This document shows positions 592-57,344 of a stretch of 64,000 nucleotides of DNA, piece after piece; within the stretch, counting starts at the first letter, position 1; the number at the start of each line of letters is the position of its first letter. The notes beneath the pieces were generated by a model that saw nothing but the letters and a program-made list of their open reading frames with translations, was not told where the DNA came from and did no database searches. Origin of the DNA: Vicinamibacterales bacterium (GTDB lineage Bacteria > Acidobacteriota > Vicinamibacteria > Vicinamibacterales > UBA8438); contig OZ241843.1 in the NCBI GenBank assembly GCA_965202695.1, positions 436,781 to 500,780 on the forward strand, given 5' to 3'. Both the position numbers and the translations under genes were made by a program.

Positions 592-631
592 CGCCCCGGC
601 GCCCGTCGCCGGGAACCCGCGGCGGGCTCCC

Positions 632-666: not shown

Positions 667-895
667 CGCGGTGAAACACCCCGCTGCAATTGCGAGCGGC
701 GCAGCATCTGACCTGACTGCGTCGTTCGTTCGGCGGAACATGCCCGACACGCGCCCTTCTCACGCCTTGCCAGGCAGGCGCGCCTTGCCCGCCGGACGTT
801 CTCCGTCCGCCGGACGTTCTCCGTCCGCCGGCGCCCTCGGCGTTCGCCGGTGCCCGTTCGGGCGCGATACCGCGCAGGGGGGCCGCCACGGGCTG
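662..895. mobile_element. MITE-family copy
   Basis: Ends CGGCCCGCGGTGAAAC...CCGCCACGGGCTG; body similar to 39818-39976; internal 18-bp tandem repeat; flanks CCAT/CTAT. Confidence 0.75.
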
Positions 896-931
896 CTATA
901 CTGGGGATTCCGAAGGTCAAAGAGGGGGGCC

Positions 932-3325: not shown

Positions 3326-3374
3326 GCGCAGCGCGGGCCTTCCCGAGCGTCCGCGGCACTTCTGGAGAATCGCC

Positions 3375-15833: not shown

Positions 15834-15864
15834 CCAGCGACCGTGGAAACCGGGGATCGCCGGA

Positions 15865-18786: not shown

Positions 18787-18789
18787 GGC

Positions 18790-20985
18790 TCAGTTCGAGG
18801 TGACGAGCGCGCGGTAGGCGCCGTCCTGCCCGATGAGCTCGTCGTGGGTGCCGCTCTGGACGATGCGGCCTCTGTCGAGCACCACTATCTCGTCCGCGTC
18901 CCGGATCGTGCTCAGCCGGTGCGCGACGATCAGGCAGGTGCATCCGCGCCGCCGGATGCGGTCGTCGAACTCCATCTCGGTGATCGGGTCGAGCGCGGCG
19001 GTCGCCTCGTCGAGAATCAGCACCGTCGGATTGGACGCGAGCGCGCGGGCGACTTCCAGACGCTGGCGCTGGCCGCCGCTGAAGTTGCGCCCGCCTTCCT
19101 CGACCGGCGAGTCGTACTTGCCGGGCCGGCGCGCGATCTCGTCGTGGATCACCGCGCCGCGCAGGGCGTTGGTGACGTCGCTTTCCGGAATGGTCGGATT
19201 CCAGAGGGTGACGTTCTCGCGCACGTTGCCGTCGAACAGCATGACGTCCTGGTCGACGTAGGAGAGCGTACCGGTCAGGTGGCTCGGGGGAATTTCGGTC
19301 ACCGGCCGGCCGTCCATCCGCACCGTCCCGGACCACGGCGTCAGCAGGCCGCAGACCAGCTTGGCGATCGTCGACTTGCCGCATCCGGACGAGCCGACGA
19401 GCGCCACGCGCTGCCCCGGCCGGATCGACAGGCTGAAGTCCTGGATGAACGGCGGCTCCTGCTCGTTGTACCCGAACGTGAGGTTCTCGACGTCGACGAA
19501 TCCCCGCGTCGGCGCGGGCGCGTCCGGCGCCGACCGGTCCAGGGCCTGCGCCGCGCGCGCGTCCGGCTGGTAGTGCAGCACGTCGTCGAGGCGGGCGATG
19601 TCGCCCTTCACGGTCTGCAGCTCGGCGGCGAACTTCACCAGTCCGTCGACCGGCTGGAGGAAGCTCCGGGCGAGGTTCTGGAAGGCGATCAGGCCGCCGA
19701 CGGTGATCGCGCCGGCGTTCATCCGCAGGCCGCCCGCGCCCAGGATGGAGACGGTCGTGACGGACGAGAGCAACGGCGGGAGGACGTTCAGCAGGTTGGT
19801 GAGGACGCCGATCTGCTGTTGCGCGGCGAGCGCGTTGGCCTGCAGGCCGGACCAGCGCGTGAAGAATTCGTCTTCGGAGCCGTTCGCTTTCAGCGTCTCG
19901 ATCATCCGGATCCCGTTCACCGAGGCGCCGGCCAGGCTCCCCTCCTCCTTGAGCATCCGGCGGCTGCCGTCTTCGCGCGCGCGCGACACCAGGCGGAGCG
20001 CCATCAGGTTGACGGCGGCCATCGCGACGACGACCAGCGCCAGCGCCGGGTCGTAGGAGACCATGACGAAGCCGTAGATCGCCATGGTGATCAGGCCGAC
20101 GAAACTGGTGGCCAGCTGCCCCGACAGGAGCTCGGCGACCCGGTCGTTGGAAGCCACCCGGTGGGCGATCTCGCCGGCGAACCGCTGGCCGAAGAAGTGC
20201 ATCGGCAGGGTCACGACGTGGCGGAAGAAGCGGTAGGTGGCGACCAGCGAGAGCTTGATCTCCAGGCGGGCGAGACAGTGCTGCTGCAGCCACGTCAGGC
20301 CGCCCTGCATGGCGGCGGCCGCCGCCAGGCCGAGCAGCATCGGCATGACCAGGTCTTCGCTGCGCGGGATCAGCACGTCGTCCACGAACACCTTGGACAG
20401 CGTGGCGACGGCGAGGCCGGGCACGACCAGCACCAGGGTCGCGAGGACGACGAAGCCGAGCGGCGACCACGCCTCCCCCAGCCGGGCGAGCAGGCCGCGG
20501 GACACGCTGGGGGCCGAGCCGGCCCGGCGGAAATCCGGACCGGGAACGAACGCCAGGCAGACGCCGGTGAAGCCCTCGTCGAACTCCTGCCACGACAACC
20601 GGCGCGGCCCTTCGGCCGGATCGTTGACGTAGACGGTCCCGCGCCGGATACCTTCGACCACGATGAAATGGTTGAAGTCCCAGAAGACGATCAGCGGGAA
20701 GGGCAGGTCGAACAGCCGCCCCGGTTCGCGCCGGAAGCCCTGCGCGACGAGGCCGTACTCCCGCGCCGCCCGCAGCATGTTGACCGCCTTGCTGCCGTCG
20801 CGCGAGACGCCGCAACGCACCCGCAGCTCTTCCAGCGGCGCCCAGCGCCCGAAGTATGCGAGGATCATCCCGAGGCACGCGGCGCCGCACTCGGTCATCT
20901 CCATCTGCAGGATGGTGGGCACGGTCCGGCGGCCGCCGCGCTTGCGGGTGACGTTGCCCCGGAAGGCGGAAACGTCGCCGCTCAC
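18790..20985 (-). CDS. NHLP bacteriocin-export ABC transporter with C39 peptidase domain
   Basis: PTILQMEMTECGAACL, CGVSRDGSKA, WDFNHFIVV, NDPAEG (Cys/His/Asp present); GSSGCGKST, FSGGQRQRLE; GTG start inferred. Confidence 0.92.
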   Translation of the reverse strand: MSGDVSAFRGNVTRKRGGRRTVPTILQMEMTECGAACLGMILAYFGRWAPLEELRVRCGVSRDGSKAVNMLRAAREYGLVAQGFRREPGRLFDLPFPLIVFWDFNHFIVVEGIRRGTVYVNDPAEGPRRLSWQEFDEGFTGVCLAFVPGPDFRRAGSAPSVSRGLLARLGEAWSPLGFVVLATLVLVVPGLAVATLSKVFVDDVLIPRSEDLVMPMLLGLAAAAAMQGGLTWLQQHCLARLEIKLSLVATYRFFRHVVTLPMHFFGQRFAGEIAHRVASNDRVAELLSGQLATSFVGLITMAIYGFVMVSYDPALALVVVAMAAVNLMALRLVSRAREDGSRRMLKEEGSLAGASVNGIRMIETLKANGSEDEFFTRWSGLQANALAAQQQIGVLTNLLNVLPPLLSSVTTVSILGAGGLRMNAGAITVGGLIAFQNLARSFLQPVDGLVKFAAELQTVKGDIARLDDVLHYQPDARAAQALDRSAPDAPAPTRGFVDVENLTFGYNEQEPPFIQDFSLSIRPGQRVALVGSSGCGKSTIAKLVCGLLTPWSGTVRMDGRPVTEIPPSHLTGTLSYVDQDVMLFDGNVRENVTLWNPTIPESDVTNALRGAVIHDEIARRPGKYDSPVEEGGRNFSGGQRQRLEVARALASNPTVLILDEATAALDPITEMEFDDRIRRRGCTCLIVAHRLSTIRDADEIVVLDRGRIVQSGTHDELIGQDGAYRALVTSN

Positions 20986-21102
20986 GACCCGAACGTCTCC
21001 CGCGGCGCCCGCGCCGCCAGGGTGCTCGACGCCCGGCTCCGAGTCTCGACTTCGATGGGCGCCGGCGGGCCGTCCTCGGCGAGCACGTCTCCCGGTACCT
21101 TG

Positions 21103-21247
21103 CAGCCCGTGGTGGAATCCGCGCGCCGCGCCGCGCCCGAAGGGCGCCGGCGGACGCCGAGGGCTTCGGCGGACGGAGAACGTCCGGCGGGCAGGGAGCA
21201 CCCGACCGGCAAGGCGCGAAAAAGGCGCATGCCAGACATGTTCGCGG
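21103..21247. mobile_element. MITE-family partial copy (reverse) in the exporter leader region
   Basis: CAGCCCGTGGTGGAA end plus GGCGGACGGAGAACGTCC unit. Confidence 0.65.
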
Positions 21248-21248
21248 C

Positions 21249-21277
21249 AAAGTAACTACACGGCGCGCGATTGTCAA
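21249..21277 (-). promoter_or_regulatory. Sigma70-like promoter of the exporter operon
   Basis: TTGACA-17 bp-TACTTT on the minus strand. Confidence 0.6.
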
Positions 21278-31741: not shown

Positions 31742-33250
31742 TCATCGCTTCGCGCGGGCCTCTGCGCCGGGGGCGCCGGGCCGGCCGCCCAGGATCGCGA
31801 GGTCCCGGGCGTCGGGAGCGCGGGGCCGGCCGCCCAGGATCACGTCGCCGACCGAACCTTCCACCGTCGGGTCGAGGCCGGTGGCGCGGGCGAACAGGAC
31901 CGCGTCGCCGCTGCCCAGCCCGCAGGGCGAGAGTCCGAGCTCGGTCGCCGCCAGGTACAGGGTCTGGTACAGCACCCCGGTGTTGCGGAGGGTCGTGGCG
32001 TAGCAGATCGATTTGTACTTCCAGGTCACCCGGGCGAAACGCGCGGCGATGACGAGCACGATCTGCGGATCGGCCTGGTTGGCGCTGGCCACGTGCGCAT
32101 CCGCGAAGAACCGCTCGACGTCCCGCGTGCGGCCCGCGATCCGCACCAGCGCGTGCCCGGCCGCGTCGTAGTGGTACAGGCCCGGCTCCAGGCCGTCGCA
32201 GCGGTCGACGACCGGATAGATCTCCAGCTCGTAGCTCGCCCCGCCGTTCGGATAGGGGCGGCGCGTGAGCTCGAACGGGGCGGTCCGGCCGGCGGCGTTG
32301 CCCACCTCGACGACCACGGAGGAGCGGATGCGGGCCGCGCGGTCGAGCAGCGCCCCGAGATCGTCCCGCGATATCGGGTGCGCCTCGTCGTAGTACCGCT
32401 CGGACCGGCGCCGTTCGAGCACGGCCGCGAACGATTCCCCGCCGGCGGGGGCGCGGGCGAGGGGGATCGGCGTCCCGGGCCACGGCGGGCGCGCCGCCGG
32501 CAGCGGCTCGATCTCGCCGATGAACGAGAACCCGGCGCCGAGCGGGTCGCGGTGCCAGCCGCCGCGGCTGTGGGCGTGGAACAGCAGATCGTGGAACTCC
32601 CATTGCGCCAGCGCGTCGCGCCGCGCGGCGTCCGGCCCCGGTTCCGCCGCCGTCCCGTCGGATTTGCCGGTGGCGGGCGGCGGCGCGGACCGCGCGCCGG
32701 CGGGCGGTTGCCGCGTTTCCAGAAACCCCGCGGCGGCGAGCGCGCGGCGGACGATCGGAGCGTCGAGCGCCGCGAGGCGGTCGAACCGGAAGCGCGCCCC
32801 CGCCAGCGGCGACTCGAGGAGCCACGCGCCGCCGTCGCGCCGGATGCAGGCGAAGCGGTCGAGCGGCGCATCGGGTGCGGCCGGGGCCAGCGCGGGCGTG
32901 AACGACGGCCGTTGCGGCACGATGACCGCGGGTTCGTCCGCCGCGTCGACCAGCGGGAATTCGACGAATCCCGCCCCGCACAGCCGCTGCAGCCAGACGA
33001 GGTAGAAGGCGGCGCGCGCGCCGCCGCCGGCGGCGATGACCGTGTCGCGCAACGCGGCGAGCGGCGCGCCGGCGGCGAGCCGGGCGTTGGCCGCCTCGAA
33101 ATCCGGCGCATGCGGACCGAGGACCGCCGGCGCCGGCAGGTCCGGACCCTCGGCGACGAACGAGGCGCCGTCGGCGGACCGCCCGAGGGTCCATCCGGAA
33201 CGGAGGCGCACGCGGATCGCCGGCTCCCGCACGAGGTCGAGGAAAGTCAT
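31742..33250 (-). CDS. SagB/ThcOx-family FMN-dependent azoline dehydrogenase
   Basis: QWEFHDLLFHAHSRGG, LERRRSER, RPYPNGGASYELEIY, GLYHYD, RFARVTWKY (Lys-Tyr), GVLYQTLYLAAT, CGLGSG. Confidence 0.92.
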   Translation of the reverse strand: MTFLDLVREPAIRVRLRSGWTLGRSADGASFVAEGPDLPAPAVLGPHAPDFEAANARLAAGAPLAALRDTVIAAGGGARAAFYLVWLQRLCGAGFVEFPLVDAADEPAVIVPQRPSFTPALAPAAPDAPLDRFACIRRDGGAWLLESPLAGARFRFDRLAALDAPIVRRALAAAGFLETRQPPAGARSAPPPATGKSDGTAAEPGPDAARRDALAQWEFHDLLFHAHSRGGWHRDPLGAGFSFIGEIEPLPAARPPWPGTPIPLARAPAGGESFAAVLERRRSERYYDEAHPISRDDLGALLDRAARIRSSVVVEVGNAAGRTAPFELTRRPYPNGGASYELEIYPVVDRCDGLEPGLYHYDAAGHALVRIAGRTRDVERFFADAHVASANQADPQIVLVIAARFARVTWKYKSICYATTLRNTGVLYQTLYLAATELGLSPCGLGSGDAVLFARATGLDPTVEGSVGDVILGGRPRAPDARDLAILGGRPGAPGAEARAKR

Positions 33251-33258
33251 GCCGTCCG

Positions 33259-35607
33259 TCAGATGAAGACCGACACCGGGTTGAGGTCGGCCTCCGCGGT
33301 GGGGGTCTCGCGCCATCCCATCCGGACCGGCACGTCGTACAGCCGCCCCGGCCCGAAGCGCGGCCAGAAGTGCCGCAGTCCCGGCACCAGGGTCCTGGTC
33401 ACCGGCAAGCCGACGTCCGGCCGGGTCTGGTCGAGCACGAGGAACTCCAGCCCCAGGCCCTCGACCCGCGCGCGGCACAGCTCCACGTCGTCCCGCAGGT
33501 CCGTCGTCGCCGGAACCGGGTAGTCCGCGGCGCCGCGCCGCGCCGCGCCGCCGGCCGGCGCCAGCCAGCGGTGGTCGGCGAGCCGGGCGGTCCGCCACCA
33601 CCGGAGACTCTCCGGGTCGTCGAAGAGGTACCCGCGGCCGTCGCCGTCCACGTCCCGGACCGCCGGCAGCGACTGGTTCAACTCGGTCACCGCCCGCAGC
33701 GCCGCGATGCGCGGGTCCAGGTGGGCGCCGGCCGAGAACAGGATGTCCTCGGCCTCCTTGTCGGTGCGCCGCGAGACGGAGACGAAGACCGGGATGCCGA
33801 GGTCGCTGGTGACGTCCAGCACCCACAGTTCGCGGTGGACCGCGGCGTAGTAGTCGCGCGCGCCGGCCAGCCAGGCGTCGCCGAAGCTGTCCAGGTCCAC
33901 CTCGGGGAGCGCGATCCGGTTGTACCACCAGCAGGCGAACGCGTCGCGCTCGACCAGCTCGAAGAACCCCTGCAGAATCGCTTCCTCGCGCGTGTTGCCG
34001 GCCGCGCAGCCGTTCGAGTCGGGGCCGCAGGAGGCCTTCCCTTTCTCGATCGGCGGGCCGTAGTAGAGCATCTGGGTGGGCAGGTACCGGCGGCGGTCGG
34101 CGGTGAGCGACCAGACCGGCGTCCAGTCCATCTCCGCCGCCGGGTCGAAGCGCACCGGCACGCGGTTGAAGCGCTCCTTGCGCGCGTTGATCTCCCGCGC
34201 GCGGTCGTACTGCGCTTCGCTGTAGCGCATGACGTCGTTGGGGTGTATCGCCTCCCCGTCCGCGAAGTCCTCGAAGCGCGCGCGGCGGCGGATCTCGTCA
34301 CCGTGGTAGACGCCGGAGTAGCGTTCGATCGCCTCGCAGAGCGCGCTCGCCTCCGCCTGCTCCGGCGTGGCGCCCTTGCCCGAGCTCTTGCTCCGCAGGC
34401 TGTTGCGCAACAGGAACAGCGAATCGGTCCGCAAGCCCAGATTGCTCCCCGCCCACCAGACGTGCAGCCAGGAATCGGCCGCGTCGGTGATGCGCTGCAG
34501 CCCCGTCACCACCCCGCTGACCGGGCTGACCAGATGCCGGTACCGGCGCACCGTCTCGGCCGGCGGCACCGACCGCTGCCCGCCGCTGCCGAAGACCGGC
34601 TTGGGGCTCGGCCCGAGCCGGACCGGGGCGTCCGGCCGGTCGGGGCGGTGGAGCGCGGGGTCGCCGCAGACCCGGCACTGCGGCCGGCGCATGACCGGGT
34701 GGCGGTCGACGCCCGGCCCGTGGCAGTCGACCGCAATCGCATGGCGGTGCAGCGGGGCCTGCTCGCCGAGAACCACCCAGCGGACGATTTCGGCTGCCGC
34801 CAGGCCCACCGCCGCGTTCGAGAAGGGCGGCAGGACGGCGCGCGGCCGGATCGCGGCGGCGTCGTCGCCGGCGGCGGCGCGCAGGAAGGTCTCGACCTCG
34901 TCGTTGGCGCGCAGGCGGTGCGCCAGGCATTCCCAGCAGGGCGCGCCGTCTTCCCCCGGCCGGAAGACCGGCCCGAAGAGCGGCCGGACGCCGTGCGGCT
35001 GGACCAGCACCCACGGGACGCCGGAGGCGCGGTGGCGCCGGTTGGCGGCGGCGTGCTCCGGGTCCAGATAATGGGAAGTGGCGGCCACCGCGAGGGTCGG
35101 CTCGCCGGCCGTGACGGTCAGCCGCGCCGCCTCGAGCGCCGCGCCGAGGCGGCCGTCGCCGTCCCCGGCCACCGCGACCCGGGCCGCGCCCAGCCGTTCT
35201 TCCGCCGCGCGGGGCGAGACCCCCGCCGCGCTCCAGAACGCGGCGGCGGCGCGCGGCATGGCGAACTCGGCCGAGACGACGTGGCCTTTCGAGGCGAGGG
35301 AGACGAGCGCGGTCTGCACCTCGATCCGCCCGTGGCGATCGGCCAGCGCGGCGGCGATCTCGTGGCGCGAGCGGGCGCCGTCGACGAGCGGCAGCAGGTC
35401 GACGTACCGCCGCCCGTACAGTATCGTGCTGCCGATCTCGGAAACCAGCAGCACGGCATCGTCGCCGACCGGACGCGCCTCCAGATGCGGGGCCAGCAAC
35501 GGCGTCTCGACGAGACCGCGGTCGGCGGCGGTGGTGTGAGTCAACGCCCGGGCCGGAACGTCCGCGGGGTCGGCCGCGGCCGGTTTGCCGGTGTCGAACC
35601 GTTCCAC
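33259..35607 (-). CDS. Fused RRE/E1-YcaO cyclodehydratase (TruD/PatD-like)
   Basis: PLFGPVF, CWECLAHRL, RRPQCRVCG; HLVSPVSGVV, SSGKG, EAIERYS, SNGCAAG, ELVERDA, RAVTELNQ, PGLRHFWPRFGPGRLYDVP. Confidence 0.93.
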   Translation of the reverse strand: MERFDTGKPAAADPADVPARALTHTTAADRGLVETPLLAPHLEARPVGDDAVLLVSEIGSTILYGRRYVDLLPLVDGARSRHEIAAALADRHGRIEVQTALVSLASKGHVVSAEFAMPRAAAAFWSAAGVSPRAAEERLGAARVAVAGDGDGRLGAALEAARLTVTAGEPTLAVAATSHYLDPEHAAANRRHRASGVPWVLVQPHGVRPLFGPVFRPGEDGAPCWECLAHRLRANDEVETFLRAAAGDDAAAIRPRAVLPPFSNAAVGLAAAEIVRWVVLGEQAPLHRHAIAVDCHGPGVDRHPVMRRPQCRVCGDPALHRPDRPDAPVRLGPSPKPVFGSGGQRSVPPAETVRRYRHLVSPVSGVVTGLQRITDAADSWLHVWWAGSNLGLRTDSLFLLRNSLRSKSSGKGATPEQAEASALCEAIERYSGVYHGDEIRRRARFEDFADGEAIHPNDVMRYSEAQYDRAREINARKERFNRVPVRFDPAAEMDWTPVWSLTADRRRYLPTQMLYYGPPIEKGKASCGPDSNGCAAGNTREEAILQGFFELVERDAFACWWYNRIALPEVDLDSFGDAWLAGARDYYAAVHRELWVLDVTSDLGIPVFVSVSRRTDKEAEDILFSAGAHLDPRIAALRAVTELNQSLPAVRDVDGDGRGYLFDDPESLRWWRTARLADHRWLAPAGGAARRGAADYPVPATTDLRDDVELCRARVEGLGLEFLVLDQTRPDVGLPVTRTLVPGLRHFWPRFGPGRLYDVPVRMGWRETPTAEADLNPVSVFI

Positions 35608-35701
35608 GATCTGCTCGCGATCCGCCCGAATGCGCGCGGGCGGGAAGCGGCCGGGCAGGCGGTCACGCGAAGGACGCGCGCCGCCCCCCGGCCGGACGGC
35701 G

Positions 35702-36025
35702 TCAACTCATGGTCGAAATGGTGCTGATCAGGCAGAACGAGCACTTGGGGCCGAAGCTGATGCCGCCGGCGACCGTTGCGAGGTCCTCGTCCGCCAGGAC
35801 CTCGTTCGGGTCGGGAGGCATGATGAAGTTGAAGGTTTCCGCCGTGTTCGCGACGATCCGCACGTCGCGATCCGAAGGCATGCAGATGCCGTGCTCGGAC
35901 AGCACGGTGCGGGCGTCCTTCTCCGCCCGTGCGCGCAGTTCCGGATCTTCCTGGCACTTCCGGGTGAAGTCGACGAACGGCGCCATCTCGGCGGACTTCG
36001 CAAGGGTGTCGAGGTTGTTCATCAT
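35702..36025 (-). CDS. NHLP-leader RiPP precursor P1 (core ISFGPKCSFCLISTISTMS)
   Basis: NHLP-like leader ending LADEDLATVAGG; Cys/Ser/Thr-rich core. Confidence 0.9.
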   Translation of the reverse strand: MMNNLDTLAKSAEMAPFVDFTRKCQEDPELRARAEKDARTVLSEHGICMPSDRDVRIVANTAETFNFIMPPDPNEVLADEDLATVAGGISFGPKCSFCLISTISTMS

Positions 36026-36115
36026 TGCCGGTTTCCTGGGAGCATGGGGGGGTGCGGCCACGGCCGCGGGCGGCGGTCACGCGAAGGACGCGCGCCGCCC
36101 CCCGGCCGGACGGCG

Positions 36116-36442
36116 TCAACTGAAGGTCGAAATGGTGCTGATCAGGCAGAACGAGGTCTTGGCCTGGGTGCTGCTGATGCCGCCGGCGACCGTTGCGAGG
36201 TCCTCGTCCGCCAGGACCTCGTTCGGGTCGGGAGGCATGATGAAGTTGAAGGTTTCCGCCGTCTGCGCAACGATCCGCACGTCGCGATCCGGCGGCATGC
36301 AGATGCCGTGCTCGGCCAGCACGGCGCGGGGGTCCGCCTCTGCCCGTGCGCGCAGTTCCGGATCTTCCTGATACTTCCGGGTGAAGTCGACGAACGGCTC
36401 AATTTCGCCGGACTCCGCGAGGGTGTCGAGGTTGTTCATCAT
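36116..36442 (-). CDS. NHLP-leader RiPP precursor P2 (core ISSTQAKTSFCLISTISTFS)
   Basis: AGGAGG RBS; leader ending DLATVAGG; close paralog of P1. Confidence 0.9.
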   Translation of the reverse strand: MMNNLDTLAESGEIEPFVDFTRKYQEDPELRARAEADPRAVLAEHGICMPPDRDVRIVAQTAETFNFIMPPDPNEVLADEDLATVAGGISSTQAKTSFCLISTISTFS

Positions 36443-36524
36443 TGCCGGCCTCCTGGGAACATAGATGATACGGCCACGGCCGCGGTCACGCGAAGGACGC
36501 GCGCCACCCTCCGACCGGTTGGCG

Positions 36525-36848
36525 TCAACTATAGCACAGGACGCAACTGATCAGGGTGGACGCGGTCTTGTTGGCTCTGCTGTCGGTGGAGAAGCCGCCG
36601 GCGACCGCGCCGAGGTCCTCTTCCGCCAGGGCGACGTTCGGGTCGGGAGGCATGACGACGTGGAAGGTCTCCGCCGTGTTCGCGACGACCCGCACGTCAC
36701 GCCCGGGCGGCATGCGGATGCCGTGCTCGGACAGCACGGCGCGGGGTTCCGCCTCCGCCCGTGCGCGCAGTCCCGGACTTTCCTGGTACTTCCGGGTGAA
36801 ATCGACGAACTGCGACAAATCGCCGACGGTGTCGATGGTGTCCATCAT
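36525..36848 (-). CDS. NHLP-leader RiPP precursor P3 (core FSTDSRANKTASTLISCVLCYS)
   Basis: AAGGAGG RBS; leader ending DLGAVAGG. Confidence 0.9.
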   Translation of the reverse strand: MMDTIDTVGDLSQFVDFTRKYQESPGLRARAEAEPRAVLSEHGIRMPPGRDVRVVANTAETFHVVMPPDPNVALAEEDLGAVAGGFSTDSRANKTASTLISCVLCYS

Positions 36849-36941
36849 TGCCGGCCTCCTTTGGCGACGGGTGCGCAGCATATCACGACCGCGGAAGCCC
36901 ACGCAACCGGCGCTGGGACGCGGGCATTCCGCCAGGGGCGG

Positions 36942-38393
36942 TCATGCCGTTTCTTCCGCGTCGGCGAAGGCGCAGACCGGCTCGATCAGCACGCCCCGGC
37001 GCCAGAGCGCGGTCACGTCCCTGCGCAGGAAGCGGGACTCGATCGCCGGCCGGCGGGCGAAGTCCCGCACCACGTCGTCCACCCGCGCCCCGCCGCGGAA
37101 GGCGCCGGCGAGGGCCGGCAGGTGGCCCAGGTCGCGGCCCGACCGGAACGTCACCCCGTACCCGTGCCCGTGCCCGGACGCGCGGATCCGGCCGGGACTC
37201 TCCCGGAGCGGCGCCACCGCCACTCCGCGCTGGAGCGCGAGCCGCGCCGGCGGGTCCGGCGTCATGTGGCGGGAGACCAGGCGGTCGATCGCGCGCGCGA
37301 AGTCCCCGCCGCTCCCGAAGCGTTCCTCACCGAAGACGACGTAGCCGTCCGGCCAGCGGTCGGAACAGGGTTCGGGCGAGATCAGGCGCACCCGGCCCAC
37401 GACCGGCTCGATCAGGAACCCGGACACCGAGGCCACCGTCCGGTGCGCGAAATTCTCGGGGTCGAGCCCCGACAGGCGCAGCTTGTTCCGCTCGTGCGCC
37501 GCCAGCTCCGGCCGCCGCCGGGCCGCCGTGCGGGCATGCCCGACCTCCGCCAGCGCCAGGATCGATTCGCGGTTCGCCGGGGCGACCTCCACGTCGGCGA
37601 GCTCCCCGGCGGAGAACTCCGCGTGGATCTGCTCCAGCCGCCGCCGGGTGACCACCGAGAAGCGCACCACGGAGTACGGGTATTCGCGGGGCCGCGCCGC
37701 CGCCAGCAGGCGCCGGGTGCGGGCGGGGTCGGCGACCGCCGCCGCCGTCGTCGTGCTCGGATACCGTCCCAGGAGCCGCCGGAAGACCTCCGCGTACGCC
37801 TCGTAGTCCGGATGGTCCAGCGGATCGGTGGCCCAGTACAGAATGCCCCGCACCGCGCTCGCGCCGAACGGCTCCCGGAGCGTGTCCAGCATCCGTTCCC
37901 AAGCCGCCAGATCCGTCGGCAGCACCCCGCTCAGCGGCTGCGCGGAGACGCCGCAGAACCAGCAGCGGTGGGAACAGCCCCGGGTCAGCTCGACGGCGAA
38001 CGGCAGGTGCGGGTTCACCGCGGCGCCGTCCGCGCCCTGCGCGAAGGCGAACCGCGTGCGCTGCCGCGCCCGCCACGACCGGTAGGACTCGCAGGCCCCG
38101 CCGTCGTCGGCGAAGAAGTCCGCGTAGGCCTGCACGCGCTGGTTGAGGAGACCCCAGGCGCGGGCCTCCGGGGTCCGTTCGTCGCACCGCGCGCCCGCGC
38201 GCCACACGAAGGCGAGGGCCTCGGGGTCGAGGTCGAGGCCCAGGGCGCCGACGGCCGCGCCGGGGTCCTCGCGCAAGGAGGCGCGGAAGCGGTCGTCCCC
38301 CGTCCAGCGTTCGCGGAAACGCTTCACCTGCGCGAGGATCCGCCCGCCGCCGTCCGGCATCCCGCTGCTCACGATCCGGGGTCCCGATTCCAT
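36942..38393 (-). CDS. PoyD/OspD-like radical SAM peptide epimerase homolog 1 (TVAS variant)
   Basis: KRFRERW, PFAVELTRGCSHRCWFCGVSA, YWATDPLDHPDYE, TVASVSGFL, ISPEPCSDRWPDGY. Confidence 0.85.
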   Translation of the reverse strand: MESGPRIVSSGMPDGGGRILAQVKRFRERWTGDDRFRASLREDPGAAVGALGLDLDPEALAFVWRAGARCDERTPEARAWGLLNQRVQAYADFFADDGGACESYRSWRARQRTRFAFAQGADGAAVNPHLPFAVELTRGCSHRCWFCGVSAQPLSGVLPTDLAAWERMLDTLREPFGASAVRGILYWATDPLDHPDYEAYAEVFRRLLGRYPSTTTAAAVADPARTRRLLAAARPREYPYSVVRFSVVTRRRLEQIHAEFSAGELADVEVAPANRESILALAEVGHARTAARRRPELAAHERNKLRLSGLDPENFAHRTVASVSGFLIEPVVGRVRLISPEPCSDRWPDGYVVFGEERFGSGGDFARAIDRLVSRHMTPDPPARLALQRGVAVAPLRESPGRIRASGHGHGYGVTFRSGRDLGHLPALAGAFRGGARVDDVVRDFARRPAIESRFLRRDVTALWRRGVLIEPVCAFADAEETA

Positions 38394-38464
38394 CGCCCTC
38401 GCGGACGAGAAGCGGCCGGGCGGCGGTCACGCGAAGGGCGCGCGCCGCCCCCGGCCGAAGGGCA

Positions 38465-38785
38465 TCAACTGAAGCTCATGATGCAACTGATGATGCACGA
38501 CGCGGTCTTGGGGCCGGTGCTGCCGCCGGAGACCGCCACGAGGTCCTCGTCCGCCAGAACCGCGTTCGGGTCGGGAGGCATGACGAAGTTGTAGGTCTCC
38601 GCCGTGTTCGCAGCGATCCGCACGTCCTGACCCGGCGGCACCTGGATGCCGTGCTCGGACAGCACGGCGCGGGGTTCCACGTCCGCCCGTGCGCGCAGAT
38701 CCGGGCTTCCCTGGTACTTCCGGGTGAAGTCGACGAAATGCTGCAGTTCGCCGGACGCTACGTGGGCCTCGAGGGTGTTCAGCAT
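38465..38785 (-). CDS. NHLP-leader RiPP precursor P4 (core STGPKTASCIISCIMSFS)
   Basis: AAGGAGG RBS; leader ending DLVAVSGG. Confidence 0.9.
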   Translation of the reverse strand: MLNTLEAHVASGELQHFVDFTRKYQGSPDLRARADVEPRAVLSEHGIQVPPGQDVRIAANTAETYNFVMPPDPNAVLADEDLVAVSGGSTGPKTASCIISCIMSFS

Positions 38786-38885
38786 GTTGGCCTCCTTTAC
38801 TGGTGACGGGCAATAAGCATATCACGACCACGGAGTCCCAGGCAACCCCATCGGACATGGAGACACGGAAATTCCACACGGGCCG

Positions 38886-39099
38886 TCATGCCGTCTCTTC
38901 CGCGTCGGCGTCGGCGCAGGCGCCGACCGGTTCGATCAGCACGCCCTGCCGCCACGGACAGGCCGCGTCCGGGTACCTCCCGGATACGACGGGCCGGCAG
39001 CGGCGGCGGTCGGCGGCGGTGCGCGTCAAACGCCCGCGTCAAACGCCCGCGTCAAACGCCCGCGGGGCTTGCCGCCTTGCCGGTGTCGAACCGTTCCAC
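38886..39099 (-). pseudogene. Fossil fusion of a YcaO 5' end and a radical SAM 3' end
   Basis: Starts VERFDTGK like the gene at 35607; ends WRQGVLIEPVGACADADAEETA* like the rSAM genes; early stop; 13-bp tandem x3. Confidence 0.75.
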
Positions 39100-39211
39100 C
39101 ACGGTCTGCTCGCGGTCGGTCCGAATGCGATGGGGCAGGCGAGGACCGGCCGGGCGGCGGTCACGCGAAGGACGGCGCGCCGCCCCGGCCGGAGGTCATC
39201 AGGAGAGGCCG

Positions 39212-46993: not shown

Positions 46994-48244
46994 ATGGCCA
47001 ATACACCGTTCCGGCAATCGGCCCTGGACCGGCTCTCCACCCCGGAGCATCTCGATCGCGCGCTGTTCGTGACGGCTCCCCGCGACTGGCTGGCGTTCGG
47101 GACGCTGACGGCGATCGCCGCCGCGGTGGTCGTCTGGGCCTTCGTGGGCGAAGTGGCGACCTACGTGCATGCGAACGGGATTCTGCTGAGCCAGGGCGGC
47201 ACGGTCGTCGACGCGGTGGCGGGCGGGCCGGGCACGGTGGCCCGGATCGTGCCCGCCGTGGGCGACGAGGTCGAAGAGGGGGCGGTCGTCGCGCAAATCG
47301 CCAACCTGGAAGTCGCCGAGCGCCATGCCGGCGCGCTGGCGCTGGTGGAGGAGCGCCGGGCGGGGCTCGCCGACACCCGCGCGGCGGTGGCCGAGGAGAA
47401 CGCGCTCATCGAGGGCAACCTCGCCCGGCAGCGCGAGCGCCTCGCCGACCTGGAGCGCAGCAGCCGCGAGGCGGTCGAGACCGCCCGGCAGCGCCTGGAG
47501 AACCACCGGCAGCTCTTCGCCGACCGCGTCGTCACGCGCGTGACCGTGGAGCGCAGCCAGGCGGCCTTCGATCAGGCCCAGCGCGACCTGTTCGGCGTGC
47601 TGAGCGAGCGCGACAACCTGGAATCGACCGAGCTCCAGCGCCGCAACCGGAACAACACCCGCATCGGCGAAGCGGAGGCCCGCCTGCTCGCGGCCGAACG
47701 CCAGGTCAACGAGCTCGGGGTGCTGCTCGACACCCGGCAGGTGACGGCCCCGGTCTCCGGCCGCGTCACCGAGATCAAGACGCAGCTCGGCGCCGTGATC
47801 CAGGCGGGGCAGCCGGCGCTCAGCATCCAGTCGGGGGCGGAGAACCTCGGCGTGCTCATCTACGTGCCGCCGGCCGACGGCCGCAAGGTCGAAACGGGCA
47901 TGGAAGTGCTCGTCTCCCCGTCCACGGTGCGGGCCGAGGAGTACGGCTACGTGCGGGGCCGGGTCGAGAACATCTCCGAGTTCCCGGCCAGCGTCGAAGG
48001 CATGGTCGCGGTGCTGCAGAACCGCGCCCTCGCGCAGACGTTCTCGGAGAGCGGGCCCCCCTATGCCGGCCGGGTGCTGCTCGTGCCCGATCCGGCGACC
48101 GCCAGCGGCTTTGCCTGGACTTCGCCCAAAGCCTCGGGCGAGGTGCTCACGGACGGCACGCTGGCGCGCATCGAGGTCAAGATTCAGAGCCAGACGCCGA
48201 TCACCCTGGTGGCGCCGCTGTTGCGGGAGACGTTCGGGCTGTAA
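46994..48244 (+). CDS. NHLP bacteriocin-system secretion protein (HlyD family)
   Basis: FRQSALDRLSTPEHLD, one TM segment, coiled coil, VSPSTVRAEEYGY, SGFAWTS, PITLVAP. Confidence 0.92.
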   Translation: MANTPFRQSALDRLSTPEHLDRALFVTAPRDWLAFGTLTAIAAAVVVWAFVGEVATYVHANGILLSQGGTVVDAVAGGPGTVARIVPAVGDEVEEGAVVAQIANLEVAERHAGALALVEERRAGLADTRAAVAEENALIEGNLARQRERLADLERSSREAVETARQRLENHRQLFADRVVTRVTVERSQAAFDQAQRDLFGVLSERDNLESTELQRRNRNNTRIGEAEARLLAAERQVNELGVLLDTRQVTAPVSGRVTEIKTQLGAVIQAGQPALSIQSGAENLGVLIYVPPADGRKVETGMEVLVSPSTVRAEEYGYVRGRVENISEFPASVEGMVAVLQNRALAQTFSESGPPYAGRVLLVPDPATASGFAWTSPKASGEVLTDGTLARIEVKIQSQTPITLVAPLLRETFGL

Positions 48245-48471
48245 CCGCCCGTGGCGGCGCCCCCCGCCCGAGGGGCGTCAGCGACGTAGTGCGCAAGCGG
48301 ACAGAAACGCCCGCCTGACAATGCAAAGGAGGGCCGTTCAACGACGGGCCGGTGTCCGCCTTTTCCGCCCTTCGGGGGGACACGTCACCCGCAAAGCCCG
48401 GCGTGCGGCGGGCCGTACAGCCGATACGGTTCGGGCGCGCCGTCAGGCCGCCGCCGGCGCGCCCGCCCGGG

Positions 48472-48732
48472 TCAGTCCCCGGACTTGACCGCCGGCAGCA
48501 CGATGTGCAGCAGATTTTCGGTGTTGAACAGCAGCTTGACGGAGGCGCCCGCCGGGACGTCGATCCCCTCGGCCTTGAGCACCGCGGTCGGGTCCGCGTC
48601 CACCGCCGCCTTGAAATCGGGGTCGCCGTAGTACTTGGCCACCACGTCGGCGTACACCCGCTGGTTGCGTTCGAGGCGATCGCGGGTCAGCCCCTCCAGT
48701 ACTTCGTCCGTCGCGTTCGTCTTGTCTGTCAT
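48472..48732 (-). CDS. Core-less NHLP-leader-like protein
   Basis: VVAKYYGDPDFKAAVDADPTAVLKAEGIDVPAGASVKLLFNTENLLHIVLP, then stop; no GG motif or core. Confidence 0.75.
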   Translation of the reverse strand: MTDKTNATDEVLEGLTRDRLERNQRVYADVVAKYYGDPDFKAAVDADPTAVLKAEGIDVPAGASVKLLFNTENLLHIVLPAVKSGD

Positions 48733-48939
48733 TCTCTCGTCTCGCTTCTCTATTCGTCACTGCACGCCGGCCGGAGAACGCCGCCGCGGCCTCGCGCCGC
48801 CCAACCAACCCTGCCGGTGTCCGCGCCGTTCCACGCCGCGCTTCCCCACCCGGAAAGCGGCTCATTATACTCCCCCCGCGGACGCCGCGCAACCCGCGCC
48901 AGGACCCGGTAATACCCCGAGGCGGCGCTTCACCGCCTA

Positions 48940-50355
48940 CTACTTGCCGCCGCCGCGCGAGAGAAAGCCGTGCGAAAGGCGCCAGCGGGCGTCGAGAGCC
49001 TCCTGGTCGAGATCCGGCAGGCCCGCGATTCCCAGCGCGCGCGCGGTCAGCCCCCCGACCGCCTCCAGCAGGCGGTAGGCGCCGACGACGGCGTCGCGCT
49101 CCGCGCCGAGCGCGGCGACCTGACGCGAGACGAGGTTCCGTTCGGCGTCGAGCACCTCCCGCGTCGTCCGTTCGCCGATGTCGGCCTCGCGCTGGATGCC
49201 GGTCAGCGCCGTACGCGATGCGTCGACCGCGGTCCGGAGCGCGGCGAGCCGCTCCCGGGCCGAGTGCAGGGCGAGCCAGGCGGCGGTCGCCCGTTGCGCC
49301 GCCTCCCGCGCGGCGGCCTCCTGCTCGCTGCGGGCCCGCTCCTGCACGCGGTGCGCCTGCCGGAGGCGCGCGCCCACGGCCCCGGCCTGATAGATCGGCA
49401 TGGTCACCTGGACGCCCAGGGTCATGTCGGTGCTGTTCGGCAGGAAGGAGAGCTGCCCCTGGCCCAGGGTCCTCGTGATCGTCCCCCGCAGATCGACCCG
49501 CGGTCCGAGCTCGCCGGTGACCGCGCGCGCGGCGTGGCCGGCGGCGCGCACGGCGTGGTCGGCGGCGCGCACGGCCGGCCGGCCGCCCTCGGCCATGCGA
49601 ATCGCCTCCGCCAGGCTGCCCGGCAGGCCGGCCGGCTCGTCCGGCGCCACCAGACCGTGCGGGCGGACCCCGACCAGCATCGCGAACAGGGACCGCTGCG
49701 TTTCGAGATCCGCCTCCGCCGCCGCCACCTCGGCGATCGCCACGTCCCGTTCCGCAAGGGCCTGGGCGACGTCGGCGGCGGTACGGTCGCCGACCTCGAA
49801 CTGGGCCTCGTTCTCGCGGACGCGCGCCTCGAACGCACCGAGCGCCGCCCGGCGCAGCTCGGCCGTGCGTTCGGCGCGCAGCACGTCGAGGTAGACGGTG
49901 GCGACGCGCAGAAGCACGACCTGCTCCACGTCCTCGACGGCGGCGTGGGCCTGCAGGACCTCCTGGTCGGCGCGGCGGAGCAGCGCGCCGTTGCGGCCGC
50001 TGTGATAGAGGTTCTGCGTCGCCGACAGCGTGAGGATCCGCTGGCTGGTCACCAGAGGGGACGCGCTGAAGTCGGTGAAGTCGAGGGCGCTCCCGATGCG
50101 GGTGAGGCTCGCCCGCGTGTCGGCCTGCACGGCGGGCATCCAGACCGCGCGGGCGAGAGGGACGCCCTCGTGGGCGGAACGCGCGGCCTCGCGGGCCGCG
50201 CCCACGTTCGGATTGGTCCGGAGCGCCTCCGCGAAAGCCTCCGCGAGCGTCAGCGCGCGAAGCGGCGCCGCCGCCAGCGACAGCAGCGCCAGCCCGGCCG
50301 CCGCCCGCCGCCACCCCTTCCTCCGCCGCCCGATTCCGCCTGTCCTGTCGTCCAT
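48940..50355 (-). CDS. TolC-family type I secretion outer-membrane protein
   Basis: Signal peptide; LTLAEAFAEALRTNP, QFEVGDRTAADVAQA, PIYQAG, GERTTREVLDAE, YRLLEAVGGL. Confidence 0.9.
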   Translation of the reverse strand: MDDRTGGIGRRRKGWRRAAAGLALLSLAAAPLRALTLAEAFAEALRTNPNVGAAREAARSAHEGVPLARAVWMPAVQADTRASLTRIGSALDFTDFSASPLVTSQRILTLSATQNLYHSGRNGALLRRADQEVLQAHAAVEDVEQVVLLRVATVYLDVLRAERTAELRRAALGAFEARVRENEAQFEVGDRTAADVAQALAERDVAIAEVAAAEADLETQRSLFAMLVGVRPHGLVAPDEPAGLPGSLAEAIRMAEGGRPAVRAADHAVRAAGHAARAVTGELGPRVDLRGTITRTLGQGQLSFLPNSTDMTLGVQVTMPIYQAGAVGARLRQAHRVQERARSEQEAAAREAAQRATAAWLALHSARERLAALRTAVDASRTALTGIQREADIGERTTREVLDAERNLVSRQVAALGAERDAVVGAYRLLEAVGGLTARALGIAGLPDLDQEALDARWRLSHGFLSRGGGK

Positions 50356-50577: not shown

Positions 50578-51129
50578 CTAGCGCCGCCGGACGGACTGGA
50601 TCACCACCACCTCGTCCGGCAGGCTGTTGGTCACCGGCACGGCGGCGATGCGGTCCACGACGTCGGCGCCGTCGATGACCCGTCCGAACACCGCGTACCC
50701 GAAGTCGCGCACGCCGTGGTTGAGGAAGTTGTTGTCGACGGTATTGATGAAGAACTGATCGGTCGCGCTGTGGATCTCGCTGGTCCGCGCCATGGCGATC
50801 GTGTATCGGTCGTTCAGCAGCCCGTTCTCCGCCTCGTTCTCGATCGGGTCGCGGGTCGGCCTGGTGCGCATCTCCGTCGAGTAGGCGCCGCCCTGGATCA
50901 TGAACCCCTGGATGACGCGGTGGAAGATGGTGCCGTCGTAGTGCCCGGCGTCCACGTACTGCAGGAAGTTGTCGACGCTGATGGGCGCCTCGGCGGGCGC
51001 GAGCTCGATGGTGATGACGCCCAGGCTGGTCTCCATCACCACGACGGGGTCGTCCTGCGCGGACGCGGGGAGGGGACCGGACAGCGCGAACGCGATGCCG
51101 GCGGCGACGGCGAAGCGGCGGAACGTCAT
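50578..51129 (-). CDS. ppiA: Periplasmic cyclophilin peptidyl-prolyl isomerase
   Basis: YDGTIFHRVIQGFMIQGG, IAMART, SATDQFFIN, GYAVFGRV; signal peptide. Confidence 0.88.
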   Translation of the reverse strand: MTFRRFAVAAGIAFALSGPLPASAQDDPVVVMETSLGVITIELAPAEAPISVDNFLQYVDAGHYDGTIFHRVIQGFMIQGGAYSTEMRTRPTRDPIENEAENGLLNDRYTIAMARTSEIHSATDQFFINTVDNNFLNHGVRDFGYAVFGRVIDGADVVDRIAAVPVTNSLPDEVVVIQSVRRR

Positions 51130-55547: not shown

Positions 55548-56320
55548 TGCGGGCTCCCCGCACCCTCGTGCTGGTGCCCACCGAGACCGAGCGCCGCCAC
55601 CTCGCGCGGCGGCGGGACTTCGGCGTCGACGCGCCCTGCGCGCTGTGCGGCTTCGGCCCGGTGGCGGCGGCGGCGCGGGCCCGCGACGCCATCGCCGCCC
55701 ACGAGCCCCGGCGGGTCGTCCTCGTCGGCATCGCCGGCACGTTCGACCCCGAGGGGCTTCCGGTCGGCACGGCCGCCGTCTTTCCGTCGGTCGTGATGCA
55801 CGGGGTCGGGGTGGGCACGGCCCCGTTCGTGCCGGCTCCCGCCCTCGGCTACCGCCACTGGCCGCGGCGCGGCGCGGACGGGGCGGACGCACCCGACGCG
55901 CTCGCCCTCGCGTGTCCCGCCCCCCCCGCGGCGGGCCCGCTCCTGACCGTGTGCGCGGCGGCGGCGACCGAGGCCGAAGCCGGCGAGCGGCGGGAACAGT
56001 TCCCCGGCGCGGCGGCCGAAGACATGGAAGGCTTCGGGGTGGCGCTGGCGTGCCGCCTCGCGGAGGTGCCCGCGGCCATCGTCCGCGGCATCTCGAACGC
56101 GGTCGGCGACCGGCGCTTCGAGCGCTGGCGGATCCCCGAGGCGCTCGACGCCGCCTGGACCGTCGCCGCCGACCTGCTCGACCGGCCCGCCTGGCCGCCC
56201 GCGGCGGAACCCCGCGCCGCACCGCGCCCGAAGGGCGCCGGCGAACGCCGCGGGGCCCCGGCGGACGGAGAACGTCAGGCGGACAGGGAACGTCCGGCGG
56301 ACGGAGAACGTCCGGCGTGA
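55547..56320 (+). CDS. mqnB: Futalosine hydrolase
   Basis: GFGPVAAA, LVGIAG, AEDMEGFGVALAC, VRGISNAVGDR; adjacent to mqnD. Confidence 0.82.
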
Positions 56321-57177
56321 CGCCCATCCACCTGGGCATCTCCACCTGCCCGAACGACACGTTCGCCTTCCACGGCATCCTGGAGCGGAAGGTGGACCCG
56401 CGCGGCCTCGACTTCCGCATCGAGCTGCTCGACGTCGAAGAACTGAACCGGCGGCTGTTCGCAGGCGACTTCGACGTGGCGAAGGCCAGCTTCCACGCCG
56501 CGCTCCGGCTGGGGAGCACGCTGGGGGTGCTGCCGGTCGGCGCCGCCCTCGGCTTCGGCGTCGGTCCGCTGCTGCTGGCGGCGCGGCCCGGCGCCCATCC
56601 CCGCGACCCCGTCCCCCGGCCCGGCCGCGGACCCCGGCCCGCGCGCGTGCTGTGCCCGGGCGCGCACACCACCGCCGCGCTGCTCTACGCGCTGTTCCAC
56701 GCGGGCGAGGGCGCGGTCGAGCACGTGGTGTTCTCCGACGTCATGCCCGCCCTCGAGGCCGGCGCCGCCGACTTCGGCGTGTGCATCCACGAGGGCCGTT
56801 TCACGTGGCGCGCGCGGGGACTCGCCCTCGTCGAAGACCTCGGCGCGGTCTGGGAACGGGCCACCGCGGCCCCCCTGCCGCTCGGCGGCATCCTGGCGCG
56901 CCACGCGCTCGGCCCCGAGACCATCCGCGCCGCCGCCGCGGTGATCCGCGACTCGCTCGCCCATGCCCGGACCCACCGCGCGGAGACGCTCCCCACCATG
57001 CGCCGCTACGCGCAGGAGCTCGGCGACGACGTGCTGCGGCAGCACGTCGACCTCTACGTGAACGACTGGACCACCGACCTCGGCGACACCGGCCGGGCGG
57101 CGCTGGAGACGCTCGACCGCGAGGCCCGCCGCGCCGGCCTCGCCGAAGCCGGCGCGCCGCCCCTCCGCGTGTACTGA
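56317..57177 (+). CDS. mqnD: 1,4-dihydroxy-6-naphthoate synthase
   Basis: STCPNDTFAF, DVEELN, GAALGFGVGP, IHEGRFT, PLPLGGI, HVDLYVND. Confidence 0.92.
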   Translation: MTPIHLGISTCPNDTFAFHGILERKVDPRGLDFRIELLDVEELNRRLFAGDFDVAKASFHAALRLGSTLGVLPVGAALGFGVGPLLLAARPGAHPRDPVPRPGRGPRPARVLCPGAHTTAALLYALFHAGEGAVEHVVFSDVMPALEAGAADFGVCIHEGRFTWRARGLALVEDLGAVWERATAAPLPLGGILARHALGPETIRAAAAVIRDSLAHARTHRAETLPTMRRYAQELGDDVLRQHVDLYVNDWTTDLGDTGRAALETLDREARRAGLAEAGAPPLRVY

Positions 57178-57344
57178 ATCCAGCTCGCGCCTTCACCGGC
57201 CCCGCCCCGCCGCCGCCCGTCCGCCCGCCGGGTGGCCGCCCCGCCCGCCCGGCCCCGCGCGGCGGGCGCGGCCGCCGAATCCGGTACAATTCCGCCCCGC
57301 CCGGCGCCGCCCGTCGATCCCCCGGCGCCCCGGCACACCGCGTC

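Follow-up and report, generated by a model that had tools for sequence, protein, structure and literature searches.

Dehydrazoles are known from carnazolamide, the product of the cca cluster of Chryseobacterium carnipullorum, in which an NHLP precursor is encoded together with the YcaO protein CcaB, the dehydrogenase CcaC, the radical S-adenosylmethionine (rSAM) epimerase CcaD and the LanMbC enzyme CcaM (Pei, Zhu & Nair 2023, PMC10676384). As described there, CcaM joins DUF4135 to a cyclase-like domain that lacks Zn ligands, and CcaD installs one D-Pro late in the pathway. The same authors reported more than 50 related clusters, mostly from Proteobacteria and Actinobacteria and some of them with several precursors (PMC10676384). 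A second compound, nostatin A from the nst cluster of Nostoc sp., is characterised by X-Dha/Dhb-azole triplets (Dha, dehydroalanine; Dhb, dehydrobutyrine) and one modified D-Pro (Delawska et al. 2024, PMC11583998). In a stretch of 64,000 nucleotides from an uncultured, sponge-associated Vicinamibacterales bacterium (assembly GCA_965202695.1, contig OZ241843.1; hereafter the window), the genes at positions 31742-50355 probably encode a dehydrazole-type proteusin pathway, judging from their sequences. The enzyme combination as such is already known, as the class was published in 2023-2024 (PMC10676384, PMC11583998).

With a GC content of 73%, the window yielded a plain list of open reading frames (ORFs) that was mostly noise, and frames were picked by the GC content of third codon positions (GC3). 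Families were assigned by Pfam and NCBIfam profiles with curated cut-offs. All genes named by the first-pass annotation were found intact, and the profile matches bore out its inventory of eight NHLP precursors, an E1-like/YcaO fusion, a SagB dehydrogenase, two PoyD-like rSAM proteins (rSAM1 and rSAM2), a LanM-like enzyme, HlyD and TolC (Table 1). The eight precursors and all enzymes are open frames with a strong GC3 bias. On the minus strand the order is TolC, a coreless NHLP-domain protein, precursor 7, the LanM-like enzyme, rSAM2, a 1-kb gap, precursors 6, 5 and 4, rSAM1, precursors 3, 2 and 1, the E1-like/YcaO fusion and SagB; precursor 8 and HlyD are located on the plus strand. The YcaO and SagB genes are adjacent, and TIGR03604, TIGR03882 and TIGR03605 were all matched above cut-off.

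The eight precursors are 40-85% identical in pairwise comparisons, and all of them matched the NHLP leader model TIGR03793/NHase_alpha at 36-47 bits, under the cut-off of 50.9. The cores that follow the GG/AG site comprise 18-25 residues with 8-12 Ser/Thr/Cys each, one to three of these being Cys. Every core carries a C-terminal block of 14 residues, K-[TCS]-[AS]-[SF]-[TC]-[LIM]-[IVL]-S-[CT]-x-x-[CST]-x-S, within which a Ser-[Cys/Thr] pair is invariant (8/8 cores). The Lys of this block is preceded by a spacer that varies between 4 and 11 residues and, to judge by the sequences, may be trimmed; the cores of relatives are longer, rich in Gly/Ala/Ser/Thr and start directly after GG with K-[ST]-A-S-[ST]. 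S-[T/C] dipeptides occurred 20 times in the cores, compared with 8.87 +/- 2.36 in shuffled cores, and none of 10,000 shuffles reached 20, a test that counts eight paralogous cores as independent and thus overstates their independence. As a sequence pattern, the cores fit the published Ser-before-azole rule. The likely products are peptides of 18-25 residues in which, by analogy, the 14-residue block would supply about four azoles as well as two or three Dha residues.

Maturation would start with the production of the eight NHLP-leader precursors. The E1-like/YcaO protein would cyclodehydrate core Cys and selected Thr/Ser residues, and SagB would oxidise the resulting azolines to azoles. The LanMbC enzyme would then phosphorylate and eliminate only those Ser residues that directly precede an azole, resulting in Dha-azole units and no lanthionine. 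One or both PoyD-like rSAM enzymes would afterwards epimerise residues that are not predictable. Finally, the C39 domain of NHLM-ABC1 would cut after GG/AG, and the ABC pair, HlyD and TolC would export the peptides. Azoles, dehydro residues, a library of 18-25-residue peptides and their export had been proposed from the sequence before, and these parts agree with the family matches and with the two characterised pathways. The D-residues, which belonged to the same proposal, are less certain and constitute the least secure part of the predicted chemistry.

The LanM-like protein had been called cyclase-less, which needs correction: it retains a Zn-less, LanC-like remnant of about 250 residues, and such a domain is required in CcaM. 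The LANC_like profile gave merely 10.4 bits (cut-off 23.2; profile positions 2-67 of 350), and the class II LanM model TIGR03897 matched the N-terminal part only, with 197.7 bits against a cut-off of 304. An AlphaFold2 (AF2) model built on 46 relatives had a predicted local distance difference test (pLDDT) value of 93.1 and was aligned by Foldseek over the full length to LicM2 (E 9e-26, 742 columns) and CylM (E 1e-21); for the C-terminal part, a local alignment with LanCL1 covered 189 columns (probability 0.99). In a MAFFT alignment of 18 sequences, including four canonical LanMs, the stretch with GFAHG, WCHG and LCHGD is deleted in the LanM-like protein. With it, the Zn-ligand motifs (Cys/Cys/His in canonical LanMs) and about 130 residues around them are gone, and since the LanC-like domain has no Zn site, no lanthionine would be made. 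The DUF4135 dehydratase domain and cores with Cys and many Ser/Thr might suggest a class II lanthipeptide pathway, with thioether rings to core Cys made by the LanM-like enzyme as well. The deletion of the Zn site and the unmatched LANC_like profile make it highly improbable, as do the co-located YcaO and SagB, which would use up the Cys, and the characterised homolog type, which makes no lanthionine (PMC10676384).

The dehydratase part of the enzyme is well preserved. Residues D218, H220, K239/K241, D309, N314, D326, R459 and T465, whose roles in phosphorylation and elimination are known from CylM (PMC4550811), are the same in all 46 family members. CcaM is reported to dehydrate only Ser preceding an azole, to act independently of the leader and to need its Zn-less C-domain (PMC10676384). 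Dehydration by a LanM-type domain, as expected by the first-pass annotation, is supported by the family matches; by analogy with CcaM, however, it would depend on azoles and not on the leader, unlike generic LanM chemistry. In the DxH motif, Trp takes the place of His in 46/46 relatives and in the four other Zn-less forms examined, whereas canonical LanMs have His in three of four cases and Ser in the fourth. We tentatively link this Trp signature to an azole-dependent mechanism in which the residue would contact the azole next to the target Ser, a suggestion put forward jointly with the role of the coreless protein discussed below.

The rSAM1 and rSAM2 proteins share 72% identity. Each contains one CxxxCxxC motif and too few further Cys for auxiliary clusters, and neither a B12-binding nor a SPASM domain was found with Pfam or NCBIfam. 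By their profile matches, both appear to be relatives outside the trusted set of TIGR04517. Scores below the curated cut-off, the absence of solved structures matching rSAM2 (0 at E <= 0.01) and the presence of rSAM genes in only 8/25 related loci are compatible with another function, i.e. a different radical modification of the Pro-less cores, or activity of only one paralog. In carnazolamide and nostatin A, Pro is the sole epimerised residue (PMC10676384, PMC11583998). Since it is missing from the conserved block, the rSAM enzymes of the window cannot act as CcaD and NstF do, which also speaks for the alternative. On the other hand, the TIGR04517 matches are strong and in the case of rSAM2 nearly full length, the two proteins have the single CxxxCxxC and the domain content described above, and CcaD is an epimerase although it is only 28% identical to PoyD (PMC10676384). 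A non-epimerase function is therefore unlikely, and epimerisation is the preferred assignment. As a separate observation, the N-terminal ~40 residues of both proteins matched NHLP-clan models (NF038399, E 1e-6 and 1e-5). Both N-termini have in common with the coreless NHLP protein the motif G-D-[PD]-x-F-[KR]-A and a conserved D-P that follows it at some distance, and an NHLP-like unit may be built into the rSAM enzymes.

The coreless protein aligns with the leaders of the precursors and ends just past the second beta-strand; the LxxxxL region, the GG site and a core are missing. In 16 of the 25 loci closest to the cluster, 19 coreless ORFs were detected with 57-82% identity to the copy in the window, compared with 58-77% for YcaO and 29-58% for the precursors of the same loci. 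By its sequence, the coreless protein is better conserved than the enzymes and is not a wreck. The protein database holds 196 clusters of it; among the 120 listed, lengths ranged from 74 to 129 residues and none was functionally named. A profile of the coreless protein matched the solved NHLP leader 8tb1_A (E 1e-13) and nitrile hydratase alpha. In the latter it matched two tandem units (e.g. residues 68-120 and 137-186 of 1v29_A), so that two NHLP-like units pack within one chain of the parent fold.

Modelled alone with AF2, the coreless protein reached a pLDDT of 64.1. A three-chain complex of YcaO, precursor 3 and the coreless protein, the partner in question, was modelled with our own alignments and scored 0.70, and the best of three controls scored 0.50. 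This mark of 0.70 was reached by 58 of 80 solved complexes versus 2 of 110 mismatched pairs, counts that are only rough for three chains and own alignments. The runs agreed in at least 73% of contacts with a pLDDT of at least 71 for the coreless protein. Both controls in which the coreless protein was replaced scored 0.00; in the control with 0.50, YcaO was replaced. The confident contacts all connect leader residues 48-70 with residues 62-83 of the coreless protein, i.e. two beta-hairpins. No confident contact between the coreless protein and YcaO was listed in the three-chain model, which says nothing on whether the two bind. The model supports, but does not show, a pairing of leader and coreless protein, and may be taken as a lead; the score may also stem from a memory of the nitrile hydratase fold in the model or from generic like-with-like pairing of homologs. 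Together with the Trp-azole contact, we consider it possible, though not probable, that the coreless protein is a trans-acting subunit dedicated to the dehydrazole subfamily, with a hairpin that pairs with that of the leader, and that both are handled as a pair by the machinery of maturation or export. If true, leader and coreless protein would rebuild the two-repeat fold of a single nitrile hydratase alpha chain. Docking of the coreless protein on the LanM-like enzyme, in the manner of NHLP bundles on DprM, was also considered; the loop helix that would be its counterpart is not conserved in the alignment (A2). The literature searched, a limited collection, contained no description of the coreless partner or of these cores; the supplementary Figs 4, 5 and 21 of PMC10676384 might already show the subfamily, the Trp signature or the coreless gene.

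The precursor array was enlarged by tandem segmental duplications, as its repeats indicate. The DNA repeats of rSAM1 and rSAM2 lie about 4.85 kb apart and share 80-83% identity. A 5' remnant of YcaO is joined to a 3' remnant of the rSAM gene behind precursors 5 and 6; the copies of this joint are 92-98% identical to one another and spaced by 1072-1085 bp. Tandem duplication with one end in the rSAM gene and the other in YcaO would leave exactly such scars. Further 5' remnants of precursor leaders are present at 39594-39671 and 40680-40751. A miniature inverted-repeat transposable element (MITE) sits in the spacer between precursors 6 and 5 and is absent from the paralogous spacer. It had at least 53 matches in the genome of the organism, at least 19 of them at 99-100% identity including its own copy (40 of 430 first-look candidates scored), and its depth in four metagenome runs was 60 to 1,000 times that of its neighbours. 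The four metagenome runs yielded short contigs only, none of them across the precursor array. The gap between precursor 6 and rSAM2 is a mosaic of at least three repeat and insertion sequence (IS) end fragments (about 240, 310 and 240 bp), which were found in many sites of the genome at 84-96% identity (52 matches including the own copy). Four stretches of gene remnants, the MITE and the repeat mosaic would also be in line with a decaying or silent cluster whose array no longer yields a product. Decay is nonetheless quite improbable in view of the open frames with strong GC3 bias, the intact catalytic residues, the 91-96% identity of the enzymes in an orthologous cluster (locus L001) and the exclusively intergenic position of the insertions.

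Directly 3' of six precursor stops, a conserved 67-nt GC-rich stem-loop was observed (35637-35703, 36051-36117, 38401-38467, 39135-39201, 40207-40273 and 45877-45943). Among nine stretches folded, the hairpins after precursors had energies of -28 to -49 kcal/mol, with z values of +0.02 to -3.24 against shuffles of GC-rich sequence. The stem-loop may be a transcript-stabilising or attenuating hairpin.

The C39-ABC exporters had been placed near 15.9-21.0 kb and were indeed identified at 15865-21255 as NHLM ABC2 and ABC1. Together with HlyD, both ABC proteins scored at equivalog level for the NHLM export system (TIGR03794/03796/03797). The orthologous ABC pair directly adjoins the cluster in L001, where the LanM-like protein is 94% identical, and the only further C39-ABC of the genome with the window is located at 2.11 Mb, next to different NHLP precursors. 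Linking the exporters to the cluster is therefore reasonable.

Besides the paralogy of the cores in the shuffle test, several points weigh against a dehydrazole-type pathway as outlined here. Every step is inferred from homology, and the likeness to CcaM rests on architecture, not on an aligned CcaM sequence; the C-domain has about 250 residues in the window versus 371 in CcaM. The ABC pair is 10.5 kb away from the cluster, with unrelated genes in between (an FAD oxidase, an aminotransferase, a lipocalin-domain protein, an AAA protein and a secreted PQQ-like propeller). The repeat-filled gap of 1 kb and the MITE lie inside the presumed operon and might disturb its expression. Both rSAM scores fall short of the TIGR04517 cut-off (291.4 and 302.3 versus 325 bits). 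Finally, Pro is lacking not only in the conserved 14-residue block but in five of the eight cores altogether, so that the epimerases may have other targets or even catalyse another reaction.

The LanM-like protein had 106 database matches, of which 89 counted as full length, spanning at least 92% of the query with 46-96% identity; in 88 of these 89, PF13575 was found alone. A genome scan yielded 79 loci. In the 25 closest ones (44-94% identity), the LanMbC gene was accompanied by YcaO in 23 and by SagB in 23 (the SagB copy of L001 is cut by the locus end). NHLP precursors were present in 22/25, often 4-15 per locus. The rSAM genes, restricted to the eight loci mentioned above, thus represent an accessory step, and two of them in one cluster occurred only in L001 and the window. 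More distant loci (Cystobacter, Myxococcus, Kouleothrix and others) likewise pair the LanM-like enzyme with YcaO and SagB, as stated in PMC10676384. Among the loci, L002, L004 and L025 have two complete clusters or duplicated halves; L010, L011 and L013-L015 contain a second YcaO without a dehydrogenase; in L012, the LanM-like gene has no other cluster gene within 10 kb.

The records are labelled as Vicinamibacterales, other Acidobacteriota, Alpha- and Gammaproteobacteria, "Ca. Porisulfidus", Binatia and Paracoccaceae. The phyla were interleaved in a quick maximum-likelihood tree of 30 proteins; starred branches force at least two changes for Acidobacteriota and at least three for Pseudomonadota, and some pairs of Alpha- and Gammaproteobacteria were split by branches of about 0.05. 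The tree fits a horizontal spread across phyla, the taxon labels being those of the submitters. The cluster type occurs in Acidobacteriota, Alpha- and Gammaproteobacteria and Binatia, with a gene tree at odds with taxonomy, which points to a function that is shared and can be transferred.

In the organism's own genome (5.06 Mb, one contig), YcaO and DUF4135 are each encoded once and PoyD-like proteins twice, in every case within the cluster. Six further NHLP precursors exceeded the TIGR03793 cut-off (164580, 1861748, 1862150, 2105963, 2116718 and 4638718), two of which flank the second C39-ABC at 2.11 Mb; the organism appears to have several other proteusin-type clusters, without YcaO, DUF4135 or PoyD-like genes. 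Near-identical DNA was present in 20 of the 21 sequencing runs listed, from seven studies, five of the runs with at least half of the words. The runs with this DNA are labelled as sponge or marine metagenome, and none of the 21 listed was an RNA run with this DNA. Because the near-identical DNA occurs in sponge-metagenome runs, the function may relate to life in sponge microbiomes. Surveys of such microbiomes list NHLP clusters with YcaO, PoyD, LanC-like and nitroreductase genes as uncharacterised (PMC9426513).

Table 1. Features of the cluster and of the associated exporter genes, with positions in the window
Feature	Positions	Strand	Evidence
NHLM ABC2 permease/ATPase (ORF limits)	15865-18789	-	TIGR03797 803 bits (cut-off 709)
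NHLM ABC1, C39 peptidase/permease/ATPase, putative leader cleavage and export (ORF limits; start codon not fixed)	18790-21255	-	TIGR03796 1009 bits (cut-off 853)
SagB-type flavin mononucleotide (FMN) dehydrogenase (azoline to azole), N-terminal ThcOx-like domain	31742-33250	-	TIGR03605 153.7 bits (cut-off 78.4); PF00881; PF22767
Fused E1-like leader-binding domain and YcaO cyclodehydratase, 782 aa from GTG start	33259-35607	-	TIGR03882 137.8 bits (cut-off 36.9); TIGR03604 270.4 (cut-off 219); PF02624 E 1.8e-101
Precursor 1, NHLP leader, 19-residue core	35702-36025	-	
Precursor 2, NHLP leader, 20-residue core	36116-36442	-	
Precursor 3, NHLP leader, 22-residue core	36525-36848	-	
rSAM1, PoyD-like radical SAM, putative epimerase	36942-38393	-	TIGR04517 rSAM_PoyD 291.4 bits (cut-off 325), E 1e-87; CxxxCxxC residues 140-147
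Precursor 4, NHLP leader, 18-residue core	38465-38785	-	
Duplication scar, rSAM 3' remnant joined to YcaO 5' remnant	38889-39186	-	tblastn remnants; repeat families D10, D11
Precursor 5, NHLP leader, 24-residue core	39212-39538	-	
MITE-like insertion, 162 bp, ~22-bp terminal inverted repeats, no functional part of the pathway	39818-39979		
Second duplication scar, rSAM 3' remnant and YcaO 5' remnant	39980-40273	-	
Precursor 6, NHLP leader, 21-residue core	40283-40606	-	
Non-coding gap of repeat and IS-end fragments	40760-41800		
rSAM2, PoyD-like radical SAM, putative epimerase	41801-43231	-	TIGR04517 302.3 bits (cut-off 325), E 6e-90, profile positions 2-444 of 446; CxxxCxxC residues 135-142
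LanMbC-type dehydratase, DUF4135 kinase/lyase and Zn-less shrunken LanC-like domain, 841 aa	43235-45760	-	DUF4135 E 1e-48
Precursor 7, NHLP leader, 25-residue core	45949-46290	-	
Precursor 8, NHLP leader, 19-residue core, divergent from precursor 7	46581-46904	+	
NHLM-type HlyD periplasmic adaptor	46994-48244	+	TIGR03794 240 bits (cut-off 156)
Coreless NHLP-domain protein ('NHLPx'), 86 aa	48472-48732	-	Three helices and beta-hairpin; no cleavage motif, no core
TolC-family outer-membrane channel	48940-50355	-	TIGR01844 230.5 bits (cut-off 225)

The first-pass annotation saw no methyltransferase or regulator, and this holds within 31.7-51.2 kb according to the Pfam, NCBIfam, Rfam and gap checks. 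The gaps at 38.8-39.2, 39.6-40.3 and 40.7-41.8 kb contained only gene remnants, the MITE and repeat fragments in place of a hidden regulator or methyltransferase gene, and Rfam gave 0 matches at gathering score over the whole window, i.e. no riboswitch or known regulatory RNA. A peptidyl-prolyl isomerase (50578-51129) and a Sel1 protein (15210-15914) were dropped as candidate members of the cluster, as tblastn found either of them in 0/25 close loci. Elsewhere in the window, a gene pair at 584-4724 encodes a PSD-domain protein (DUF1592/1588/1585/1587/1595) and a DUF1552 protein and is unrelated to the cluster. A very large ORF of 1892 aa (stop to stop) at 55947-61625 combines two protein kinase domains with a NERD nuclease-related domain and a domain like the CTD of RNA polymerase alpha.

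Only two compounds of the dehydrazole-type class are characterised, and carnazolamide was inactive in the assays reported (PMC10676384). The locus provides eight natural cores that are short, hydrophobic and of a different type, a natural test of the Ser-before-azole rule, and two diverged epimerase paralogs that cannot act on the usual Pro. Its conserved leader-like small protein may reveal how structured NHLP leaders are handled. New with respect to the class are the short hydrophobic cores, the doubled epimerase genes, the tandem-duplicated array, the predicted coupling of leader removal to export, the Trp signature, the reduced size of the C-domain, the conserved coreless partner and the likely horizontal spread across phyla.

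Proteusins of the polytheonamide/landornamide type reportedly share with the window an NHLP leader and an rSAM epimerase of the PoyD/OspD family. To our knowledge, these pathways have no YcaO/SagB azole machinery. Landornamide is said to involve the Zn-containing LanM OspM, which binds the NHLP bundle. The srp proteusins resemble the window in their YcaO-processed NHLP precursors, their sponge-symbiont habitat and their spread over phyla (PMC10858898, bioRxiv 10.1101/2023.06.09.544420). In the accounts of srp cited here, the cores end with LCCCW and are brominated by SrpI, and no LanM-like enzyme is described. An identity with the brominated srp proteusins was rejected, as neither a halogenase nor an LCCCW core was found in the window.

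With regard to the enzyme set, characterised counterparts of the locus exist in the carnazolamide and nostatin A pathways; with regard to the cores they do not. The nst cluster combines the same four enzyme types with an NHLP precursor (PMC11583998). It is cyanobacterial, has a 30-residue core and is described with additional features that were not found in the window, i.e. the B12-dependent rSAM C-methyltransferase NstA, a sactionine bridge and isobutyl-D-Pro (PMC11583998). The cca cluster and the window have in common an NHLP precursor, YcaO, an azoline dehydrogenase, a PoyD-like rSAM enzyme, a DUF4135 protein with a Zn-less LanC-like domain and Ser-before-azole pairs. In place of the methyltransferase CcaH and the S8 leader protease CcaF, the window has the C39-ABC, the second ABC, HlyD and TolC. 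The single cca precursor, with a core of 30 residues and one D-Pro, contrasts with eight precursors and two rSAM paralogs in the window, whose hydrophobic cores of 18-25 residues share a Pro-less conserved block and are accompanied by a conserved coreless NHLP protein.

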